This document shows positions 28,061 through 37,743 of a stretch of DNA of 64,000 nt, piece by piece. A program made the position numbers and the translations under genes. The notes under the pieces were generated by a model. The model did no database searches and was not told the DNA's origin. It was given only the letters and a program-made list of their open reading frames with translations. The first letter of the stretch is position 1. Each line of letters begins with the position of its first letter. The DNA is taken from positions 42,511-106,510 of the forward strand of contig CAMMHE010000001.1 in NCBI GenBank assembly GCA_946496575.1, written 5' to 3'. Origin of the DNA: an uncultured Clostridium sp. Its GTDB lineage: Bacteria; Bacillota; Clostridia; TANB77; CAG-508.

Positions 28061-28504
28061 TTATTCTATTTTTTCACATTCTAATTTTACTTGATCTTTG
28101 CAATCTTGATCAGGATTTTTAAAACTTAAATACCAACTTAATCCATTTCTATTTTCATTTATATATTTAACTCTTTCTTGTAATTCAGGATATGTTTGTG
28201 GTGCTGGAACTATTACAGGTTGCCCAGGTATCCAATTTGCAGGAGTAGAACCACTACTACAATCTGCCATTTGAAGGCTCTGAACGATTCTAAGTATTTC
28301 AGGTATAAATCTACCAACATTTAAAGGATATACTAAAATTACTCTTATAATTCCTTTATCATCTATAATAAAAACATTCCTTACTGTTTTTGTAGTACTT
28401 ATATCGCTTGCTATCATTCCATATTTTCGTGCTATTTGCCCATTTCTATCAGCTATTATTGGAAATGGAATTTGTATGCCTGTTCTACAATAAATATCAT
28501 ACAT
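28061..28504 (-). pseudogene. peroxiredoxin (1-Cys Prx/AhpC-TSA family) C-terminal fragment, separated from its N-terminal part by the inserted element
   Basis: Fragment begins ...AWMYDI and carries the Prx C-terminal region (IPFPIIADRNGQIARKYGMI...); the in-frame upstream codons read SNASHLAW, identical to the end of the N-terminal fragment at 36599. Confidence 0.8.
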
Positions 28505-28506
28505 CC

Positions 28507-28528
28507 ATGCAAGATGTGAAGCGTTACT
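28507..28528. repeat. 22-bp direct repeat copy 1 (ATGCAAGATGTGAAGCGTTACT); att core / target duplication of the prx-inserted element
   Basis: Exact 22/22 match with 36601..36622; both lie inside the prx reading frame (encode SNASHLA on the minus strand). Confidence 0.75.
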
Positions 28529-28556: not shown

Positions 28557-30149
28557 TCAAGTATTAATTGATGTATTTACAAGATTCAACTCTGAAAAAT
28601 TAAAGTAAAGATAAATATTTTTATTTTCATCTAATTCCACTCTATCTATTAGTTCATATAGTATTTTTCTGCTTGGTTTCTCGAATTTCAAAAACTCATT
28701 TATTATATTTTCAATATCTTCATTACGTTTTGCACCTTTTTGCTTTTCATTAATTAATTTAATTTTGCTTTCAATACTTTTTTGTTCTTTTTTTAGCCTG
28801 TCTCTTTCTTCTATGAAGCCCCTTGAGTATCTAAAATAATCATCGTTGGATATAATTCCATCTAGATTGTCGAAATACATTTTATCTATTTTCTTTGATA
28901 TTTCTTCTACTTGTTTTTCAACATTTTTAAGATTGTATTCTTCTTTTTCAATTAAATTTTCATAATTATTCTGATATTTTTCATATATTATTTTTAAAGC
29001 ATTTTTGTCGCAATAAATTTGACAAATGTTTCTAATAGCATTTAATGTTTTTTCCTCAAATTTATTGTAATTATAATTACATGTTTTGCATTTGCGGTCT
29101 TTTCCTCTTGCTAGACTACAATCTATATAGCCTATTTTCTCTTTTTTTCCTCTATAACATACTCTTGATTGTCTGCCACAATTGTGACAAAACATAAGTC
29201 CTTTGAATAAAAAATCATGCTTTGTTGCTGACATGCTTTTTTTGCCTTTTATAATTTCTTGAACTTTTGAAAACAGTTCTTTTGAGATTATTGCTTCATG
29301 GGTGTTTTCTACTCTTATGTGCTCTTCTTCTTCCTTCTTTATCTTCTTTTTTACCTTATATGATACTGAAACACATTTATTTTGCACTGTGTTTCCTATA
29401 TATGCTTCATTTACTAATATTGATCTTATGCTTTTAGGATTCCATGTTTCTCTTTGATGCTTCATGTTTAAATATTGACTTGGTGGTTTAATTTTTTCTT
29501 TATCGAAGATAGTTGCTATTCTTTGAAATCCATTTCCTTCTGAATATAACTCAAAAATTCTTTTTACATTATATGCAACATTTGTGTCTATTTCTAATTT
29601 GTTTTTTTGCGTGCTACTTTTCTTATATCCATATGGTGCAATTGTTCCTAAATATTCTCCATTTAATTCTTTTTCTTTAAAAACTCCTTTGATTTTTTTA
29701 GATATATCTTTTGCGTACATATCATTTATTATAGCTTTAAATGGTGTTACATCATTGTTTGTACTATCTATAAATGTATCTATACCATCTAATATTGATA
29801 CATATCTAACTCTTTTTTCAAGGAAATAATTTTCTATGTAATATCCTGTTTTTATATAGTCTCTTCCTAGTCTTGATAAGTCTTTTGTTATTACCATATT
29901 GATTCTTTGCGTTTCTATGTCATTTATCATTCTTTGAAAATTTTTTCTTTCAAACGTTGTTCCTGATACTCCATCATCTATGTACTCATCTATAAAAATA
30001 AGGTTGTTTTCTTTTATGTATCTTTGTAATATGTTTCTTTGATTTGATACGCTTTCGCTTTCTAACTTGTCACCATCATCTCTGGATAAACGAATATAGA
30101 TTCCGACCTTAAAGGTGATATTAGATATATTTTGATTGCTAAAAAACAT
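28557..30149 (-). CDS. large serine recombinase (530 aa)
   Basis: Resolvase catalytic domain (VGIYIRLSRDDGD...SVSNQR...MVITKDLSRLGRDY), recombinase domain, zinc-ribbon CHNCG...C...CKTC and C-terminal coiled coil; stop is 28 bp from the element boundary. Confidence 0.9.
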   Translation of the reverse strand: MFFSNQNISNITFKVGIYIRLSRDDGDKLESESVSNQRNILQRYIKENNLIFIDEYIDDGVSGTTFERKNFQRMINDIETQRINMVITKDLSRLGRDYIKTGYYIENYFLEKRVRYVSILDGIDTFIDSTNNDVTPFKAIINDMYAKDISKKIKGVFKEKELNGEYLGTIAPYGYKKSSTQKNKLEIDTNVAYNVKRIFELYSEGNGFQRIATIFDKEKIKPPSQYLNMKHQRETWNPKSIRSILVNEAYIGNTVQNKCVSVSYKVKKKIKKEEEEHIRVENTHEAIISKELFSKVQEIIKGKKSMSATKHDFLFKGLMFCHNCGRQSRVCYRGKKEKIGYIDCSLARGKDRKCKTCNYNYNKFEEKTLNAIRNICQIYCDKNALKIIYEKYQNNYENLIEKEEYNLKNVEKQVEEISKKIDKMYFDNLDGIISNDDYFRYSRGFIEERDRLKKEQKSIESKIKLINEKQKGAKRNEDIENIINEFLKFEKPSRKILYELIDRVELDENKNIYLYFNFSELNLVNTSINT

Positions 30150-30204
30150 GTACTTTTACCTCCTATTTTCTAGCAATCACCTGCTAGTTCTATTTTTCTA
30201 TATT

Positions 30205-30333
30205 TATTCAAGTTTTTCTTTTGTTTCTAGTCTTTCTTTTAAATATTCTTTAAATGCATTTCCAAGTTTTTTGTTTATATCTTCCTTTTGGTTGCTAAAT
30301 ATGCAATATACTTTTTCTGTCTCATTTTCCATT
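30205..30333 (-). CDS. small hypothetical protein (42 aa) immediately upstream of the recombinase; candidate regulator or directionality factor
   Basis: ATG with strong RBS (AAAGGAGAAAGTC); MENETEKVYCIFSNQKEDINKKLGNAFKEYLKERLETKEKLE; no known domain. Confidence 0.3.
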
Positions 30334-30991
30334 TTGACTTTCTCCTTTATTGAATATTATTAAAGGTGTTTCAAAAAATAACTGTTTTTTAGAATATAAT
30401 AAAAAAGCCTTTAGGCTATGTACGTTTTATTGTTTGCATAGTTTTGGCTTTTTGTTTAGTTTAAAATTTGTTCACCACTTTTTTAGCATGGTGATTGATA
30501 TGGAAATTGAACATGATTTCCATATATTTCAAGATATAATTATTTTTTTATTTTAATTGCATTATATAGTCTACTTTTTAAAAGTCAATATTTAAAATGT
30601 ATTTTTGCAAAAGGCAGTTTTTTCGATTTTTGCAATTTTCTGTCTTTGTAATTTTTTCAAATCATAATACTTACACTATTCTAAATATAGCCATTCTCGG
30701 TTATGGATAGTAATAAAATATTCAATAAATTTTTATTCATTTTTTTACGTTTTTGGCATTATTTTATAGAAAAAATATATAGAATGAATCATTTTCGATT
30801 AATAAAATATATTTTAGAAAATTTATTTTCATATTTTTATCAAACTGATATATTAAATAAACTTCTTCAATTTTTGTATTTTTTATATATTCGTCTTTAT
30901 TTTTTCTTTTTAAAAATAAATCTTTATATCCATTAATTAAATATTCCTAATTCGCTTAATTTTGTGTCTAGTTTTTATTGACTATTCCACC

Positions 30992-31048
30992 CGCTTTAAC
31001 GAGTCAAAAAAATGTACAAACCGGATGCTTTTGATTATCTATTTATAT
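30992..31048 (+). repeat. ~57-bp imperfect direct repeat, copy 1 (partner at 36411..36467)
   Basis: CGCTTTAA(C/T)GAGTCAAAAAAATGT(A/G)C(A/C)AACCGGAT(G/A)CTT(T/A)TGATTATC(T/C)ATTT..., about 85% identity, same orientation. Confidence 0.5.
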
Positions 31049-31143: not shown

Positions 31144-31704
31144 TTGTTTGAATTATTTATTAAAGAATGTTATGATGAAGCAATCGAATTAAAAAAGCAA
31201 TTTGAAATTACAGAAGATAAAAAATGGTCAGCACTTACAATTACAAATGAACTTTTTGTTCAATTAGGTCATTACAGTTTTATTATATGTAACAATAAAT
31301 TTGTTGAAGAAAATGGAAGAATTATAAATAATCCTAAAGATGAATTATCTGATATTTTGCTTCAACTATGTGCATTGTGCGGAAAGCTTAATATCGATAA
31401 AAATCATCTTAAATCCTACAACTTTAGGGTAACTACTTTAAATGAAGCAGTTCTGCAATTAGTAACTTTAGTAGGTCAACTGACAGAATGCATAATGGAA
31501 CTTGAAGCATACAGGCATTCAAAAGAAAGACTTGGATATTCTACAAAAATAGAATTTATAATTGAAAGAATTAATAAATGTTTTTCAATTATTTTTAAAA
31601 TCGCAGAAAATCAAAATTATGATATGATTTTTGAATTTAATTTAATGAAAAAAAATTCATTAGAATTTTTAAAAAATTATAGTAAGGAAAAATATTATGT
31701 ATAA
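31144..31704 (+). CDS. hypothetical protein, possible MazG-like all-alpha NTP pyrophosphohydrolase (TTG start)
   Basis: ELSDILLQLCALCGKLNID resembles the MazG EExxE/D-L-GDxL helix motif; overlaps the next gene by 8 nt (operon). Confidence 0.3.
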   Translation: MFELFIKECYDEAIELKKQFEITEDKKWSALTITNELFVQLGHYSFIICNNKFVEENGRIINNPKDELSDILLQLCALCGKLNIDKNHLKSYNFRVTTLNEAVLQLVTLVGQLTECIMELEAYRHSKERLGYSTKIEFIIERINKCFSIIFKIAENQNYDMIFEFNLMKKNSLEFLKNYSKEKYYV

Positions 31705-32824
31705 TTACCCCATTATTGATCTTCATGCCACTTGGTTGGTTGTAAACCCTATACAGGGTTGCCCTAACAGATGTAAATATTGTTTTTTAAATGGAGTAGG
31801 ACTAACTGGTATAAAACCAATCGAATTATTGCAACCATATGAAACTATAAAGATGTTAAAAGAATCCAACCTATATAATCAACAAATACCTATATGCATT
31901 GAATCTCAATCTGATGCTTTTTCAACTCCGAAAAACATAGAATACGTAAAAGAGTTAATAGATATCATGCATAAGCAGCATATAATGAATACCAAAATAT
32001 TCATTACTAAATGTAAAATACCTAATAATTTTATTGACTACTTAAAAAAATATAGAGAAGCTGGACATAATTTTATATTTTTTTTAAGTTATTCTGGTTT
32101 GGATAATGATATAGAAATAGGTATTAACAAAAACAATATTAAAGATAATTTCATAAAATTAAAAGAAAATGGTTTTGATATCATACATTATTGGAGACCT
32201 TTTATACCTCAAAATTCATCTAAAGAAAGAATCATAGAAGTTATGAATTTTGTAAAGCAATATGCTAGATGCTCAATAGCAATTGGTTTAAAGGCTCAAA
32301 ATACTTTTATTGACAAGCTTGATTTTTGGGAAGATATAAAGAAATATCCTGAAGCACCTTATGCTGAAAGTATTTGGACAAAAGAAGCATACGAATATAT
32401 ATATGGTGCAAATCCAATATTAAATGACGATTATCCAATATTTCAATCTACTTCTTGTGCAATTGCTTATGTAAAAAAAGAATGCGATAGAAATGCTTTT
32501 TATGGCTCTAATATTTGTATGAATTACAATAAGTGCCCTGAATCTCAACGAAAAATTTGCAATAATTATTATATCTACACCAATAAAAACATTTCAGAAG
32601 AAACAATAAAAAAACTGCTAGATAATCTTCATTTAGATATCAGAACTGTAAAAATAACTATAAATTATGAGTTAAGGCAAATATGCTTAGAAGGCATAGA
32701 ACTTGGAATGAAGCATTTTACCTATTTAACACAGTTAACTAGATTTAAAATACTTGCCAAGAAAATCAATGGAGATTATTATTGGAATACTTCTGTGAAT
32801 AATGCTAAACAATTGCATATTTGA
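31697..32824 (+). CDS. radical SAM protein, SplB/'DNA repair photolyase'-like family (COG1533-type)
   Basis: [14 protein letters not shown] = CxxxCxxC [4Fe-4S] motif in the N-P-x-x-G-C context of the SPL family; additional C-terminal Cys cluster. Confidence 0.55.
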
Positions 32825-32834
32825 GGAGGTAGTA

Positions 32835-33677
32835 ATGATAAAAAAAGCAGTCATCCCAATTGCTGGCTATGGGACAAGAATGTTGCCAGCTACAATATCT
32901 ATTCCTAAGACAATGCTTAACGTTGTTGATAAACCTATTATAGAATACATTATAGATGAAGTAATCAATGCTCGGAATAACAGAAATTTTATTAATAACA
33001 AATTTAGGATCTTCAATTATTGAAAATCATTTTGCACGAAGTTTTGAACTTGAAAATTTTCTTAAAGAAAAAAATGATATAGAAACATTTGAAAAGATAA
33101 AAAATCGTTATAGTAATGTTAATATTTATATAAAAAAGCTTCTTCAAACTTAAGTTTAGCTGAAAGCGTTTATGATGCAAAGGGTTTTGTTGATGGTGAG
33201 CCATTTTTATTAGTTCTAGGTGATGAAATATTAGGAAATAATGCTTCATGTTCTAAGACACTAGTAGAAAAATACAATGAATTAAAATGTCCAATATTAG
33301 CTGTTAAAAAAATTGGCAGAAGTGATATAAAAAATTATGGCATTGTAGAAAGTAAGCAATACAAGGATAATTTAATGATAATTGAAAAGTTAATAGAAAA
33401 ACCTTCGAAAAATGAGACAAATTCTAATTTGGCAATTATTGGTAGATATGTACTTAATGCTTCTATATTTAGTGAAATTGAGATGTTACAAACTCCTGAT
33501 TTTACTAAAGCAATGCATAATTTAAAAGAACTAAAATTTGCACTATCTATTGATGGAGAAAGATTCGATTGTGGTTCAAAGCTCGGATTAGTAAAGGCCA
33601 ATATATCAATGGCTTTAAAAAATCCAGAAATATCACAAGAATTAAAGAATTATTTAAAAGAATTATTAGAACAGTGA
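32835..33677 (+). pseudogene. UTP--glucose-1-phosphate uridylyltransferase (GalU)-like nucleotidyltransferase with two compensating frameshifts (~32973 and ~33135)
   Basis: [20 protein letters not shown]...VDKP(frame 0) / [33 protein letters not shown](frame +1) / GFVDGEPFLLVLGDEI...LAIIGRYVL...GERFDCGSKLG(frame 0) all align to GalU. Confidence 0.7.
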
Positions 33678-33688
33678 GGAGAAAAATT

Positions 33689-34168
33689 ATGGATGTTTCA
33701 GTGATAATTAATAATACAAAATTTAATTATAGAGTAGCTACTCTGATAAAGAATGATGACAAACTTTTATTGCATAAAAGTAAAGAAGATGATTTTTATG
33801 CAATCCCTGGTGGGAGAATTATGATAGGTGAAAACTCCGAAAATGCATTGAAAAGAGAGCTTCAAGAAGAAATAGGAGCAAAAATAAATATAAAAGACTA
33901 TTTAGGAACAGTAGAAAATTTCTTTGAGTACAATGAAAAAAAATACCATGAAGTCATGATTGTTTATGAGTCTACTTTTGATAGCAATTCAGATTTTTAT
34001 GAAAAAGAAAAAATAATAGGATTAGAAGAAAATGGAAAAATAGAATTTGTTTGGAAAACAATTGACGAAATCAAAAAATTGGATTTACGTCCCCTATTTT
34101 TAAAAGAAAGTATTATCTCAAATACAAAAATAAATCATTTAATAAATAATGCCATTAAACAGCTATAA
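33689..34168 (+). CDS. Nudix hydrolase (159 aa; start at internal ATG with RBS GTGAGGAG)
   Basis: Nudix box GGRIMIGENSENALKRELQEEIG. Confidence 0.75.
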   Translation: MDVSVIINNTKFNYRVATLIKNDDKLLLHKSKEDDFYAIPGGRIMIGENSENALKRELQEEIGAKINIKDYLGTVENFFEYNEKKYHEVMIVYESTFDSNSDFYEKEKIIGLEENGKIEFVWKTIDEIKKLDLRPLFLKESIISNTKINHLINNAIKQL

Positions 34169-34201
34169 AAAAGTTCTCTACGATAATCGTAGAGAACTTT
34201 T

Positions 34202-35035
34202 TTATTCGCTGTAAGTACGCAGAATTTCACTAATCACGTTAATTTTCAGAATTTTAAAAATATTTAGTACATTCGGTTGTGTATTAACATCTGATATTAA
34301 CGGAAGCTCTGCTTTTTGATATAGCATGTCTATTCCTGCAAATGTAATTCCTAATGTTCTACAGCATTTAATTGCTTTTTGTTCATCATCATAAGATAAG
34401 GAACACCTTTCATACCTATACGAACCATCTTTCATAGTAATCCGTTTGAAGCTTGACAAAACTTTGTGTTGAGTAGCAAAAACTTTAATTTCTATACTAG
34501 GCGAAAGAGTTAAGTACTCTTGCAATGCTATTCGCTCATTCATTGGTCTAGTCAGAAGAAATTCATTAAGCATATTCATATCTTTTAATACAAAAACATT
34601 GTTTTCTAAAGCACTATCTTCTAATTTTGCTACTATTGGAAATCCAATTTTTTTTGCAATTATATCTTGAAAACGTAAAGCCATTTTTACATTTGTCACT
34701 ATTGTATTTGGAATTAATCTTTCCTTTTTCAAACACTTATACGTTTCAAGCTTATTTTCACAAATAATTGCAGAAATTGGATTATTATATACCTTGATTC
34801 CAAGACTTTGGATTTGCTTAGCTAATTCCCAAGACTTATCCCAAAATAAAACGCAATCTGGCACGAATTGTATCCCGGAAAAGTAATAATCAAAATCACT
34901 TTTTAGTTTGGAAGCAGGTACTTTTACGCATAAAATATTCTCATCGCAGAATGTTTTAAAAATGAATTCTACAATTCGAAAGTATTCTTCAGAAGTAGAA
35001 GCATCATTATAAACAATCCACCATTTCTTTTTCAT
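34202..35035 (-). CDS. ATP-grasp enzyme (RimK/glutathione-synthetase-like ligase); start at MKKKWW (35035)
   Basis: ATP-grasp core (…KIGFPIVAKLEDSALENNVFVL…ALQEYL…IKVFATQHKV…AGIDML); start is coupled to the stop of the upstream gene (TAAAATG). Confidence 0.6.
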   Translation of the reverse strand: MKKKWWIVYNDASTSEEYFRIVEFIFKTFCDENILCVKVPASKLKSDFDYYFSGIQFVPDCVLFWDKSWELAKQIQSLGIKVYNNPISAIICENKLETYKCLKKERLIPNTIVTNVKMALRFQDIIAKKIGFPIVAKLEDSALENNVFVLKDMNMLNEFLLTRPMNERIALQEYLTLSPSIEIKVFATQHKVLSSFKRITMKDGSYRYERCSLSYDDEQKAIKCCRTLGITFAGIDMLYQKAELPLISDVNTQPNVLNIFKILKINVISEILRTYSE

Positions 35036-35036
35036 T

Positions 35037-36131
35037 TTATCCCTCCAATAGCTGTTTAGTTTTGGTGTAAAGTTCTTCATCATGAATATCTTTACCAAAT
35101 CTGACAAGATATACAAGTACAGAAGAAACTATTTTTTCAATAGACCTACTCGCCTCTCTTTCAAGTTCGTAATCGCTTGTATGTCTAGGGTATATCCAAG
35201 GCTTTCTAAGCGATTCATAATCAATTGGTGTAAAGCATGTTTCATGCATTAATTTTATAGCGTCTTTATTAGATAGTAACCGACTTTCAAAACAAAGAGA
35301 TCTTTCAAAATCGATTTTTGAAAATATTACCATATCCAGTGTTGAAGTTTGTTGAAATGTTGTATCCGGAAAGAAAGTTGGAACATCTGCCAACGGAATT
35401 GGAAAGCTTGTTCTACCTTCTTTAAAAGATTTAGGTAAATGATATTTCCCACTAGCAAGTACATGTTTTTTTAAAAATGCATTATTTTCAATGCTCCCCA
35501 ACTTATAAACTACTGGGATTGGAAAATAGTCCATTTTAGCAGCTCCATTCAAGTACAGGAAAGTGCGATCATTACTAATAATAGATGACTTACCTGCCGA
35601 AAGAAGTTTTGAAAAATATGTAGTTTTTCCGGAACCCTCATTTCCTAAAATGCATATTCCATGTCCATCGGTAACTAAAGATGTGCCATGCATAAATAAC
35701 TTTCCGCTATTTTCTTCTAATCGTACAATAATTTCACGAATCAAACGAAAAACATATTTAGTTGTATTACGGATACCATCCCCAATCACAATGTAATGCT
35801 GGTTTGAAAGTTTCCGAACAATGTACTTGTCTGGAAGTTGCATATAACATTCTTCTGAATCAACAAGTGCTTCCATGTGATATTCATTCTCAAAAGTGCA
35901 AATAATTCTTGTGTTCGAGGATTCAATCAACTTTTTATATTTCAAAAACATTCTTTGTTCTTCAATATATTCAATAAGAATTTGATTGTCATTATCACAA
36001 TCCTCAAAACTAGGTTCAGAATAGCAAAACTTTGCAATATGGTTAATTTGATTTTGAAGAAGATCCAAATAGTCAGTAGAAATTACAAATACATTTCCTA
36101 GGATTAAATAGGAAACTCTATACTTACTCAT
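35037..36131 (-). CDS. HPr-kinase-related P-loop kinase-like protein (364 aa)
   Basis: LFMHGTSLVTDGHGICILGNEGSGKTTYFSKLL matches the HprK/P C-terminal domain P-loop; RBS AAGGAGG. Confidence 0.5.
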   Translation of the reverse strand: MSKYRVSYLILGNVFVISTDYLDLLQNQINHIAKFCYSEPSFEDCDNDNQILIEYIEEQRMFLKYKKLIESSNTRIICTFENEYHMEALVDSEECYMQLPDKYIVRKLSNQHYIVIGDGIRNTTKYVFRLIREIIVRLEENSGKLFMHGTSLVTDGHGICILGNEGSGKTTYFSKLLSAGKSSIISNDRTFLYLNGAAKMDYFPIPVVYKLGSIENNAFLKKHVLASGKYHLPKSFKEGRTSFPIPLADVPTFFPDTTFQQTSTLDMVIFSKIDFERSLCFESRLLSNKDAIKLMHETCFTPIDYESLRKPWIYPRHTSDYELEREASRSIEKIVSSVLVYLVRFGKDIHDEELYTKTKQLLEG

Positions 36132-36205
36132 AAATATTCCTCCTTAAATTAAGTATGGTTTTTATAGGTAAACTGCTCTTGGCAGTAAATAAAATTTACA
36201 TATAT

Positions 36206-36233
36206 ATTATATACGAATTATGTAAATTGTCAA
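36206..36233 (-). promoter_or_regulatory. sigma-A promoter for the HprK-like/ATP-grasp operon
   Basis: On the minus strand: TTGACA-16-TATAAT, ~70 nt upstream of the 36131 start. Confidence 0.4.
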
Positions 36234-36410
36234 TTTTTTACAACTCTTTTCTTCCTTTCATTTTTACCTTTTCTTACCGCTTTTTATCATTTGACCATAC
36301 ACCCTTTTTTTCACTCTCCACTCCTTACCTATATCGTATCTTTTAAACTAGATACACTCTTATTCCTTCAAACTCTTTATTCCCAATAATTTAAGTCTTA
36401 CATAAATATA

Positions 36411-36467
36411 CGCTTTAATGAGTCAAAAAAATGTGCCAACCGGATACTTATGATTATCCATTTCTAT
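36411..36467 (+). repeat. ~57-bp imperfect direct repeat, copy 2
   Basis: See copy 1 at 30992..31048. Confidence 0.5.
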
Positions 36468-36595
36468 GGTATTTTGTTTTCACTTCTGATAAGAAAAAAA
36501 TCGCTCCAGATTTATTTCTAAATCTAAAGCAATTTTATTTTTTTATTTATATATTTTATTTTCACAGGTGATTGCTTATTTTATGTTGGTAAAAT

Positions 36596-36859
36596 TTACA
36601 ATGCAAGATGTGAAGCGTTACTATCTATACTAAGACCTAATAATTCTGTATTAAGTTTTTGAAAATATGTATTAGCTTTGGAAAATGCTATAAATTCTGT
36701 CGTACATACGGGGGTAAAATCTCCAGGATGCGAAAAAAATACTAACCATTTTCCTCTATAATCTTGTAATTTAATATTTCCATATGTAGTTTCAGCTTCA
36801 AAATCAGGTGCAATTTGACCTATTTTTACATTTCCATTCATCATTAATTCATAGTCCAT
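36596..36859 (-). pseudogene. peroxiredoxin N-terminal fragment (87 aa, peroxidatic Cys region)
   Basis: [24 protein letters not shown]...[15 protein letters not shown]...[13 protein letters not shown] then premature stop; RBS GAAGGGAGAG; the 229-aa ORF-track entry is an artefactual upstream extension. Confidence 0.8.
36601..36622. repeat. 22-bp direct repeat copy 2 (ATGCAAGATGTGAAGCGTTACT)
   Basis: Exact match to 28507..28528. Confidence 0.75.
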
Positions 36860-37038: not shown

Positions 37039-37179
37039 ATGAATAAATATAAATGTAGTATATGTGGATACATATATGATGAGGAGGCAGAAGGAGTAAA
37101 ATTTGAAGATTTACCAGATACTTGGGTATGCCCACTTTGTGGAGTAGGGAAGGAAATGTTTGAAAAGGTAGAAGAGTAA
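37039..37179 (+). CDS. rubredoxin (46 aa)
   Basis: Two CxxCG knuckles: CSICGYIYD...[10 protein letters not shown]. Confidence 0.8.
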
Positions 37180-37203
37180 AATTAGAAATAGGAGGAAATA
37201 AAA

Positions 37204-37743
37204 ATGGAATTAAAAGGATCAAAAACAGAAAAAAATTTAATGGAAGCATTTGCAGGAGAATCACAAGCAAGAAATAAATATACATATTTTGCTAGCAAAG
37301 CAAAAAAAGAAGGATATGAGCAAATAGCAGCTTTATTTCAAGAAACAGCTGATAATGAAAAAGAACACGCAAAATTATGGTTTAAATTACTACATGGAGG
37401 AGATGTTCCATCAACAGTAGAAAACTTAAAAGAAGCAGCTGAAGGAGAAAACTATGAATGGACAGATATGTATGAAAGAATGGCTAAAGAAGCTAGAGAA
37501 GAAGGATTTGATAAGATTGCATATCTATTTGAAGGAGTTGCAAAAATAGAAAAAGAACATGAAGCAAGATATCTAAAACTATTAGATAATGTAGAAAACG
37601 GATTAGTATTTTCAAAAGATGGAGACACAATTTGGAAATGCAGAAACTGTGGACATATTGTAATAGGAAAATCAGCACCAGAGGTATGTCCTGTTTGCAA
37701 TCATTCACAAGCATATTTTGAAGTAAAAGCTGAAAATTATTAA
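37204..37743 (+). CDS. rbr: rubrerythrin
   Basis: Ferritin-like diiron domain ([16 protein letters not shown]...EKEH...) plus C-terminal rubredoxin-like CRNCGH...CPVC. Confidence 0.85.

Follow-up and report, generated by a model that had tools for sequence, protein, structure and literature searches.

The six cargo genes of a recombinase-bearing insertion from an uncultured Clostridium sp. form one co-inherited, horizontally mobile module. They were examined in a 64,000-nucleotide (nt) stretch of contig CAMMHE010000001.1, hereafter the window. The insertion, an 8,094-bp element with a serine recombinase, interrupts a peroxiredoxin (prx) gene and has exact 22-bp direct repeats at both ends; all six cargo genes lie inside it at 31144-36131. 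With a probability of about one half, we read them as a single module that was captured by this prx-splitting element and that encodes an uncharacterised pathway for tailoring a nucleotide or nucleotide-sugar. The module is best described as an uncharacterised, rare and mobile radical SAM system assembled from known superfamilies, whose function we infer. An earlier sequence-only reading of the window had described the six genes as a plus-strand and a minus-strand operon. Their coordinates, the 8-nt overlap within the first operon and the TAAAATG coupling within the second are borne out by open reading frame (ORF) listing and inspection of the sequence. That reading was partly confirmed: its observations were largely correct and its interpretation half right.

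Recurrence and domain fusions of the module

The plus-strand run of the cargo encodes a 186-amino-acid (aa) all-alpha protein, a radical SAM enzyme, a GalU-like nucleotidyltransferase and a Nudix hydrolase, and converges on a minus-strand pair encoding a 364-aa HPr-kinase-like protein and then an ATP-grasp ligase. Contigs and loci carrying relatives of the element or the module were numbered L001 to L079. The same six-gene set is present in many of these contigs, with protein identities of 37-85% (44-79% in the case of the kinase), so the grouping goes beyond chance. It occurs in four layouts: divergent (L010, L012, L017 and L072), convergent (the window, L032, L033 and L070), co-directional (L074) and fused/co-directional (L018 and L041), with L018 reduced to a fusion protein followed by Nudix and kinase genes. 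The two operons, which the sequence-only reading had treated as separate, are thus one inherited unit in alternative arrangements, and a chance juxtaposition of housekeeping genes was rejected on the basis of conserved co-occurrence and domain fusions. For the intact genes, ratios of non-synonymous to synonymous substitution rates (dN/dS) against L033, L010 and L012 range from 0.11 to 0.39, the exception being the Nudix gene of L010 (39% identity, 0.65).

The module was found in at least five unrelated chromosomal contexts. One copy, 85% identical to that of the window, lies in L033 between a PRK-family gene and sspH and has no accompanying recombinase; together with the unrelated contexts, this indicates that the module existed before the prx element captured it. 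Module copies adjoin transposases, group II introns and a serine recombinase, and in L076 just remnants of the kinase and Nudix genes are left. The module provides an example of how site-specific recombinase elements in Clostridia acquire chromosomal metabolic modules.

Among 38 non-redundant radical SAM loci, the radical SAM gene adjoins an HprK-like gene in 14, a Nudix gene in 11, a sugar-1-phosphate nucleotidyltransferase gene in nine and an ATP-grasp gene in six, the last being the six closest loci. By co-occurrence and fusion, the core of the module comprises the radical SAM enzyme, its MazG/dUTPase-fold partner (the 186-aa protein), the HPr-kinase-like kinase and the Nudix hydrolase. The GalU-like nucleotidyltransferase is a frequent accessory and the RimK-type ATP-grasp ligase an accessory of this clade only. 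These families are rare: a set of 5.8 billion proteins contains 79 homologues of the kinase, and one of 1.84 billion contains 143 clusters of the 186-aa domain. The radical SAM family numbers about 160 homologues, most of them 557-aa proteins to which the 186-aa domain is fused N-terminally. This rare, phylogenetically wide radical SAM family, repeatedly fused to the MazG-like domain, is not represented by a Pfam model, and no report of it was found in the literature.

Domain fusions and conserved neighbours point to the substrate. The commonest fusion of the 186-aa domain is to the radical SAM enzyme (including in L018); elsewhere it is fused to Nudix and to a GT2 glycosyltransferase, and one further partner looks NDK-like when its sequence is read by eye. 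Raw translations of larger clusters in wider Firmicute relatives, likewise read by eye, include GT2 glycosyltransferases, a second Nudix, HAM1-like and CYTH-like nucleoside triphosphate (NTP) hydrolases, P-loop kinases and a deacetylase-like protein. Homologues of the radical SAM enzyme with 30-33% identity are found on replicons annotated as Streptomyces plasmids, three of which have GT4, aldolase, MurA and radical SAM genes together in a conserved block. On pFRL6 of Streptomyces sp. F12 (L079, 67298-76690), a 33%-identical homologue lies near MazG, two dCTP deaminases and a cytidine deaminase, in a run that also holds GalU, a glycosyltransferase, a HAD hydrolase and a SAM methyltransferase and that resembles a cluster for modifying or glycosylating pyrimidine nucleotides. 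A nucleotide or nucleotide-sugar ligand is the common denominator of these fusions and neighbours, and such a substrate, already proposed in the sequence-only reading, is the best-backed interpretation.

Protein families of the module

Sequence searches of the 186-aa, 364-aa and 375-aa (radical SAM) proteins against PDB sequences returned nothing significant; family profiles and structure models were informative. The 186-aa protein (31144..31704, plus strand, TTG start) has no Pfam or NCBIfam match. Its AlphaFold2 model, with a mean predicted local distance difference test score (pLDDT) of 92.7, is a six-helix bundle whose best Foldseek matches are dimeric dUTPases (probability 0.97-1.0 among the top eight, E 0.04-0.3, template modelling (TM) score 0.40-0.51). 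An exhaustive profile search collected 62 family members, 11 of which have Pfam matches at E <= 0.01, seven to MazG (best E 3e-4) and four to MazG-like (best E 8e-7). The DELxDILLQL helix and the EELGDVLF helix of the MazG-type structure 5ie9 align with each other; E35, Q39 and E66 are invariant in the family and D65 and D69 nearly so. These likenesses to MazG and dimeric dUTPases, namely the helical bundle, the conserved acidic helix and the matches of relatives, suggest at a remote level an all-alpha NTP-pyrophosphatase fold. The family differs from both in that the window protein has no significant match, TM scores are just 0.4-0.5, Q39 is invariant, and the six-helix unit is mostly a domain of a radical SAM enzyme. 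A motif reading by eye places Q39 where a metal-binding Glu of ExxE...ExxD would be expected. Because this residue replaces an acidic one, and because the unit occurs mainly as a radical SAM domain, the protein may bind a nucleotide rather than hydrolyse it.

The radical SAM enzyme (31697..32824, plus strand, 375 aa) overlaps the 186-aa gene by 8 nt and carries CxxxCxxC at residues 22-29. It matches Pfam Radical_SAM PF04055 (E 1.5e-7, 32.2 bits versus a cut-off of 29.5). In the family, C22, C26 and C29 are invariant, as are four further Cys residues at 254, 274, 280 and 288. Its model (pLDDT 92.6) gives generic Foldseek matches scattered over many subfamilies, and no subclass is assignable from structure alone. 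By structure and profile, the closest relatives appear to be spore photoproduct lyase (SPL) and the COG1533 proteins PA0069, Rv2578c and mobile pair protein B, all remote. Weak matches to the COG1533-type model rSAM_PA0069 were obtained for 16 of 39 relatives (best E 1.8e-8), and other relatives weakly match Rv2578c, 'radical SAM mobile pair protein B' or SPL (photo_TT_lyase, 2.3e-4). No above-cut-off match to an SPL/COG1533-type model was obtained, and the window enzyme itself matches none of them. Its identity to SPL is 13%, and pyruvate formate-lyase activating enzyme (PFL-AE) scores almost equally. The window enzyme is a remote relative of the SPL/COG1533 group named in the sequence-only reading.

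The 364-aa protein (35037..36131, minus strand) has a P-loop core with H148, GSGKT and SNDR, preceded by an N-terminal region of about 130 aa with no assigned domain. It has no Pfam match, and in NCBIfam it scores far below cut-off, with 30.8 bits versus 200 for TIGR04355 (HprK_rel_B; E 1.5e-7, residues 94-193 only) and 12.2 bits versus 240 for the full-length HprK equivalog TIGR00679. Relatives have precomputed matches to Hpr_kinase_C (PF07475) or ScmC (PF27840). A search of PDB with a profile of 33 kinase sequences ranked HPr kinase/phosphorylase first (E 3e-4, within the P-loop core), in an alignment that pairs MHG...GxSGxGK...DDR of 2qmh/1jb1 with FMHG...GSGKT...SNDR, and H148, G168, K169, T170, N187, D188 and R189 are invariant in the family. 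The protein thus shares the core His...GxSGxGK(S/T)...(D/N)DR with HPr kinase/phosphorylase and with the HprK kinases of clusters for peptides synthesised on ribosomes and then modified post-translationally (RiPPs), which include lasso-peptide kinases, HprK_rel_A/B and ScmC; it differs from them in its low scores and its N-terminal domain. In contrast to clusters with RiPP-type HprK kinases, the window module has no precursor peptide or PqqD-like domain.

Coupled to the kinase gene by TAAAATG is the gene for a RimK-family ATP-grasp ligase (34202..35035, minus strand, 277 aa; PF08443, E 6e-17, 62.2 bits versus a cut-off of 21). Its NCBIfam matches, which are remote, are to rimK_fam, RimK, MptN, LysX and CofF, and with 75.3 bits for TIGR00768 against a cut-off of 143.4 it is not the equivalog of a named ligase. 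The Nudix hydrolase (33689..34168, plus strand, 159 aa) has a canonical Nudix box (GGRIMIGENSENALKRELQEEIG) and matches PF00293 with 50.4 bits versus a cut-off of 21.1. The six domain labels of the sequence-only reading are correct at the superfamily level, with Pfam matches to radical SAM, NTP_transferase, NUDIX and RimK, although the GalU-like gene is not intact and its two frameshifts had been missed. MazG-like and HprK-like stand as remote assignments through Foldseek, the Pfam matches of relatives and the kinase profile, the window proteins themselves being below threshold. The 186-aa, radical SAM and 364-aa proteins belong to no named family.

Distant kinase homologues (about 32% identity; L014, L015 and L019-L027) occur in another conserved cluster, beside a type I restriction HsdR gene. 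This cluster contains two APH-type kinases, PHP phosphoesterases, AP_endonuc_2, an AdoHcyase-like protein, a second HprK-like protein, sugar epimerase and dehydrogenase genes and a Nudix, which L014 carries as a fusion with an M29 peptidase domain and L015 as a separate gene.

Proposed pathway and competing explanations

In the tailoring pathway that we propose, the MazG-like domain would hold an NTP, or a nucleoside diphosphate (NDP) sugar made by the GalU-like enzyme, by its nucleotide handle, and the radical SAM enzyme would remodel the bound nucleotide or NDP-sugar by a radical transformation. The kinase would then phosphorylate the intermediate, to which the ATP-grasp ligase may add an amino acid, before the Nudix hydrolase, possibly also the MazG-like protein, cleaves the pyrophosphate and releases the product. 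The product could be a modified sugar-phosphate or nucleotide for a glycoconjugate, or else a small metabolite, an antiviral analogue or a repair activity. The combination of a radical SAM enzyme with nucleotide kinases, phosphohydrolases and sugar-nucleotide enzymes resembles the systems of viperin (ddhCTP), DesII and BlsE in pathway logic only. Nucleotide-acting radical SAM enzymes such as viperin have given new antiviral chemistry, from which the relevance of the present module follows; with its kinase, Nudix and sugar-nucleotide enzymes alongside the radical SAM enzyme, it offers a small clonable gene set with a concrete substrate class. No description of it was found in literature searches on ScmC, on an ATP-grasp alongside an HprK-related kinase, and on radical SAM combined with MazG, Nudix and HPr kinase.

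Several observations weigh against a small-molecule tailoring pathway. RimK-type ligases often act on protein C-termini. The invariant Q39 stands in for an expected metal ligand, and the 186-aa and 364-aa proteins of the window lack an above-threshold family match. The module of this clade has neither a glycosyltransferase nor an exporter, and its GalU-like gene is broken in the window and has been lost by deletion from L032, L034 and L070. The homologues on Streptomyces plasmids reach just 30-33% identity and lack adjoining MazG-like and kinase partners. Finally, where substrates of HPr-kinase homologues are known, they are proteins or peptides and not small molecules (PMC8498205). A more specific version of the tailoring pathway is put forward only as a doubtful possibility. 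It would be a previously undescribed system, spread on mobile elements among gut Clostridia, whose MazG/dUTPase-like domain hands a nucleotide or nucleotide-sugar over to an SPL-like radical SAM enzyme. The outcome would be a modified nucleotide of a new kind, either an analogue with antiviral or antibiotic action or a glycan building block, and the GalU-like gene would perhaps be expressed via a +1 frameshift conserved at a hungry CGG codon.

The least unlikely of the rival explanations, although still unlikely, is an anti-phage or competition system in which the radical SAM enzyme makes a toxic or chain-terminating NTP analogue in the manner of viperin, or the module depletes a nucleotide, with the NTP pyrophosphatases acting in self-protection or processing. 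Such a role would suit a patchy, rare family that is mobile, often decayed and flanked by transposases, group II introns or a serine recombinase. Its chemistry is centred on nucleotides, and the pFRL6 relative adjoins two dCTP deaminase genes and a MazG gene. A scan with PADLOC-DB v2 returned the candidate singleton PDC-S07 for the Nudix hydrolase (E 1.5e-12) but nothing else at E <= 0.01, and no viperin family model is matched by the module proteins. Homologues were not found in viral contigs or phage genomes, in agreement with the sequence-only reading that the cargo does not consist of phage genes; a phage origin of the cargo was rejected on the same grounds. The neighbours of the module are housekeeping genes rather than defence islands, with no recurrent defence genes among them and no evident sensor or effector, the promoter of the kinase operon is of the consensus constitutive type, and the glycosyltransferase, MurA and GalU neighbours better suit sugar chemistry. 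The defence role suggested by the sequence-only reading thus received no backing beyond a candidate model. Nucleotide-pool or nucleic-acid repair and sanitation, with an SPL-like enzyme reversing a pyrimidine lesion and the MazG-like and Nudix proteins clearing the damaged nucleotide, is less likely than defence. SPL and the COG1533 'DNA repair photolyase' families appear closest to the radical SAM enzyme by structure and profile, its partners are all house-cleaning-type NTP pyrophosphatases, and the hosts are apparently spore-forming Clostridia, judging from the Clostridium naming and from sspH beside one copy. The similarity to SPL is, however, remote and nearly equalled by that to PFL-AE, an accessory, mobile and decaying distribution is atypical of repair genes, and the GalU, GT2 and ATP-grasp partners would be left unexplained.

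Somewhat ahead of repair, but in our view improbable, is the modification of a peptide or protein in a RiPP-, GAK- or lasso-tailoring-like system: the kinase would phosphorylate Ser, the nucleotidyltransferase would glycosylate the phosphate, the RimK-type ligase would add C-terminal residues, and the radical SAM enzyme would crosslink or epimerise. The C-terminal Ser of lasso precursors is a phosphorylation target of HPr-kinase homologues, and in pseudomycoidin a nucleotidyltransferase adds hexoses to that Ser phosphate (PMC8498205); because this pairing of an HprK homologue with a nucleotidyltransferase has its precedent in lasso tailoring, a protein or peptide target is retained as a minority alternative. 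The remote matches of the kinase to HprK_rel_B and ScmC and the presence of protein C-terminal ligases in the RimK family also favour it. A GAK system would comprise grasp_GAK, amphi-Trp and HprK-related kinase B, none of which is found in the module: the ATP-grasp ligase has no grasp_GAK (TIGR04356) match in the NCBIfam scan, the kinase reaches 30.8 of the 200 bits needed for HprK_rel_B, and none of the six products matches amphi-Trp, with no further gene conserved in the module. The sequence-only reading had likened the kinase and ligase to such a system and had itself found no precursor ORF; the comparison was rejected and the second point upheld. No precursor-peptide ORF is present in 36132-36600 on the operon (minus) strand or in 34169-34201, and across 11 loci the conservation of small ORFs was confined to those lying within coding genes in another frame. 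A Pfam scan of the six products detected no PqqD or RiPP recognition element (RRE), leader protease, exporter or transporter domain; PqqD, protease and transporter families are likewise missing from precomputed Pfam assignments of module genes in related contigs and none recurs beside the module. The radical SAM enzyme is SPL/COG1533-like rather than SPASM-type, and the occurrence of the MazG-like domain in fusions with Nudix, GT2 and radical SAM speaks for a nucleotide as the ligand. Least credible of all is that the genes are decaying, non-functional cargo hitch-hiking on the element. The two frameshifts of the GalU-like gene, its loss from loci with a 348-aa radical SAM protein, the split radical SAM gene of L033 and the remnants in L076 are all signs of decay. 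Five of the six genes are nevertheless intact in the window, with dN/dS of 0.11-0.30 against L033 and, for four of these five, 0.13-0.25 against L010, and the consensus promoter, coupled stop and start codons and a clean terminator have been kept.

The GalU-like gene and the structure of the element

The GalU-like sugar-1-phosphate nucleotidyltransferase gene (32835..33677, plus strand) is spread over three frames, 32835-33020, 32968-33150 and 33153-33674, whose products match TIGR01099 at positions 1-45, 46-97 and 107-261 (E 8e-20, 4e-8 and 3e-34, respectively). The first frameshift is an extra C at about 32971 (site 32966-32975, GCN-C-GGA). It is found at the same position in four lineages that are 56-85% identical (the window, L033, L010 and L072) and is absent in L074 and L012. 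Downstream of it the frame has no stops and a dN/dS of 0.15-0.26. At the site, the zero-frame codon CGG occurs once among 12,230 host codons; GGA, the +1 codon, is used 39 times per thousand. The extra C could reflect programmed +1 frameshifting, a split gene of which the C-terminal part alone is expressed, or slow decay. Few bacterial examples of programmed +1 frameshifting are well documented, and a frameshift kept under purifying selection is a possible addition. The second frameshift lies in a run of six A residues at about 33133-33138. This run is polymorphic within the species, with A6 in the window, L001, L003, L004 and L028 and A7, which restores the frame, in the same-species strain L002. 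With the gene frameshifted in the window strain, the GalU-like step would be either lost or supplied by the host.

In a sister species (L032, L034 and L070, which together with L033 are relatives at 79-85%), a clean 789-bp deletion has removed the GalU-like gene, and the radical SAM protein is shortened to 348 aa with loss of the nearly invariant Y362 and W363. The radical SAM gene of L033 is split; the plus-strand operon is decaying in these relatives, and the kinase and ligase genes are intact.

The convergent operons are separated by a perfect hairpin with flanking A and T runs (AAAAAAGTTCTCTACGATAATCGTAGAGAACTTTTTT; 34169..34201), read directly from the window, which is a probable bidirectional terminator. 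A sigma-70-type promoter, TTGACA-16-TATAAT, lies upstream of the kinase/ligase operon at 36233..36206 on the minus strand and matches the consensus at 12 of 12 positions, as the sequence-only reading had reported. The cargo is bracketed by a 57-nt direct repeat (repeat family D3; 30992..31048 and 36411..36467, plus strand) whose copies are 88% identical, with zero such repeats expected by chance. The repeats lie immediately beyond the segment that is homologous to the chromosomal copy in L033 (31070-36236), which fits capture by recombination, and the repeat looks like the scar of the event that loaded the module into the element. A riboswitch or shared operator was considered for this repeat and dropped, since no RNA-folding signal was found in it and it does not align with intergenic regions of divergent module copies. 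An Rfam scan of 26-39 kb gave nothing credible.

The boundaries of the element are the two copies of the 22-bp repeat (repeat family D6), at 28507..28528 (ATGCAAGATGTGAAGCGTTACT) and 36601..36622. The C-terminal part of prx (28061-28504, minus strand) adjoins the left copy, and its N-terminal part (about 36596-36857, minus strand), which holds the catalytic PVCTTE and ends at about 36600, lies on the far side of the element. Inside the left boundary is the large serine recombinase (28557..30149, minus strand; Pfam Resolvase, Recombinase and Zn_ribbon_recom), an element gene rather than cargo, with remote matches to CcrB, CcrC and XisF. Immediately upstream of it, a 42-aa ORF (30204-30332, minus strand) has a good ribosome-binding site and is kept in all copies of the element (L001 and L028-L031); it may encode a small factor for directionality or regulation. 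A promoter-like TTGACT-16-TATAAT is present at 30588..30561 on the minus strand. Exact excision at the 22-bp repeat would regenerate a prx gene reading ...SNASHLAWMYDIY..., beyond which rubredoxin and rubrerythrin genes are located at 37039-37743.

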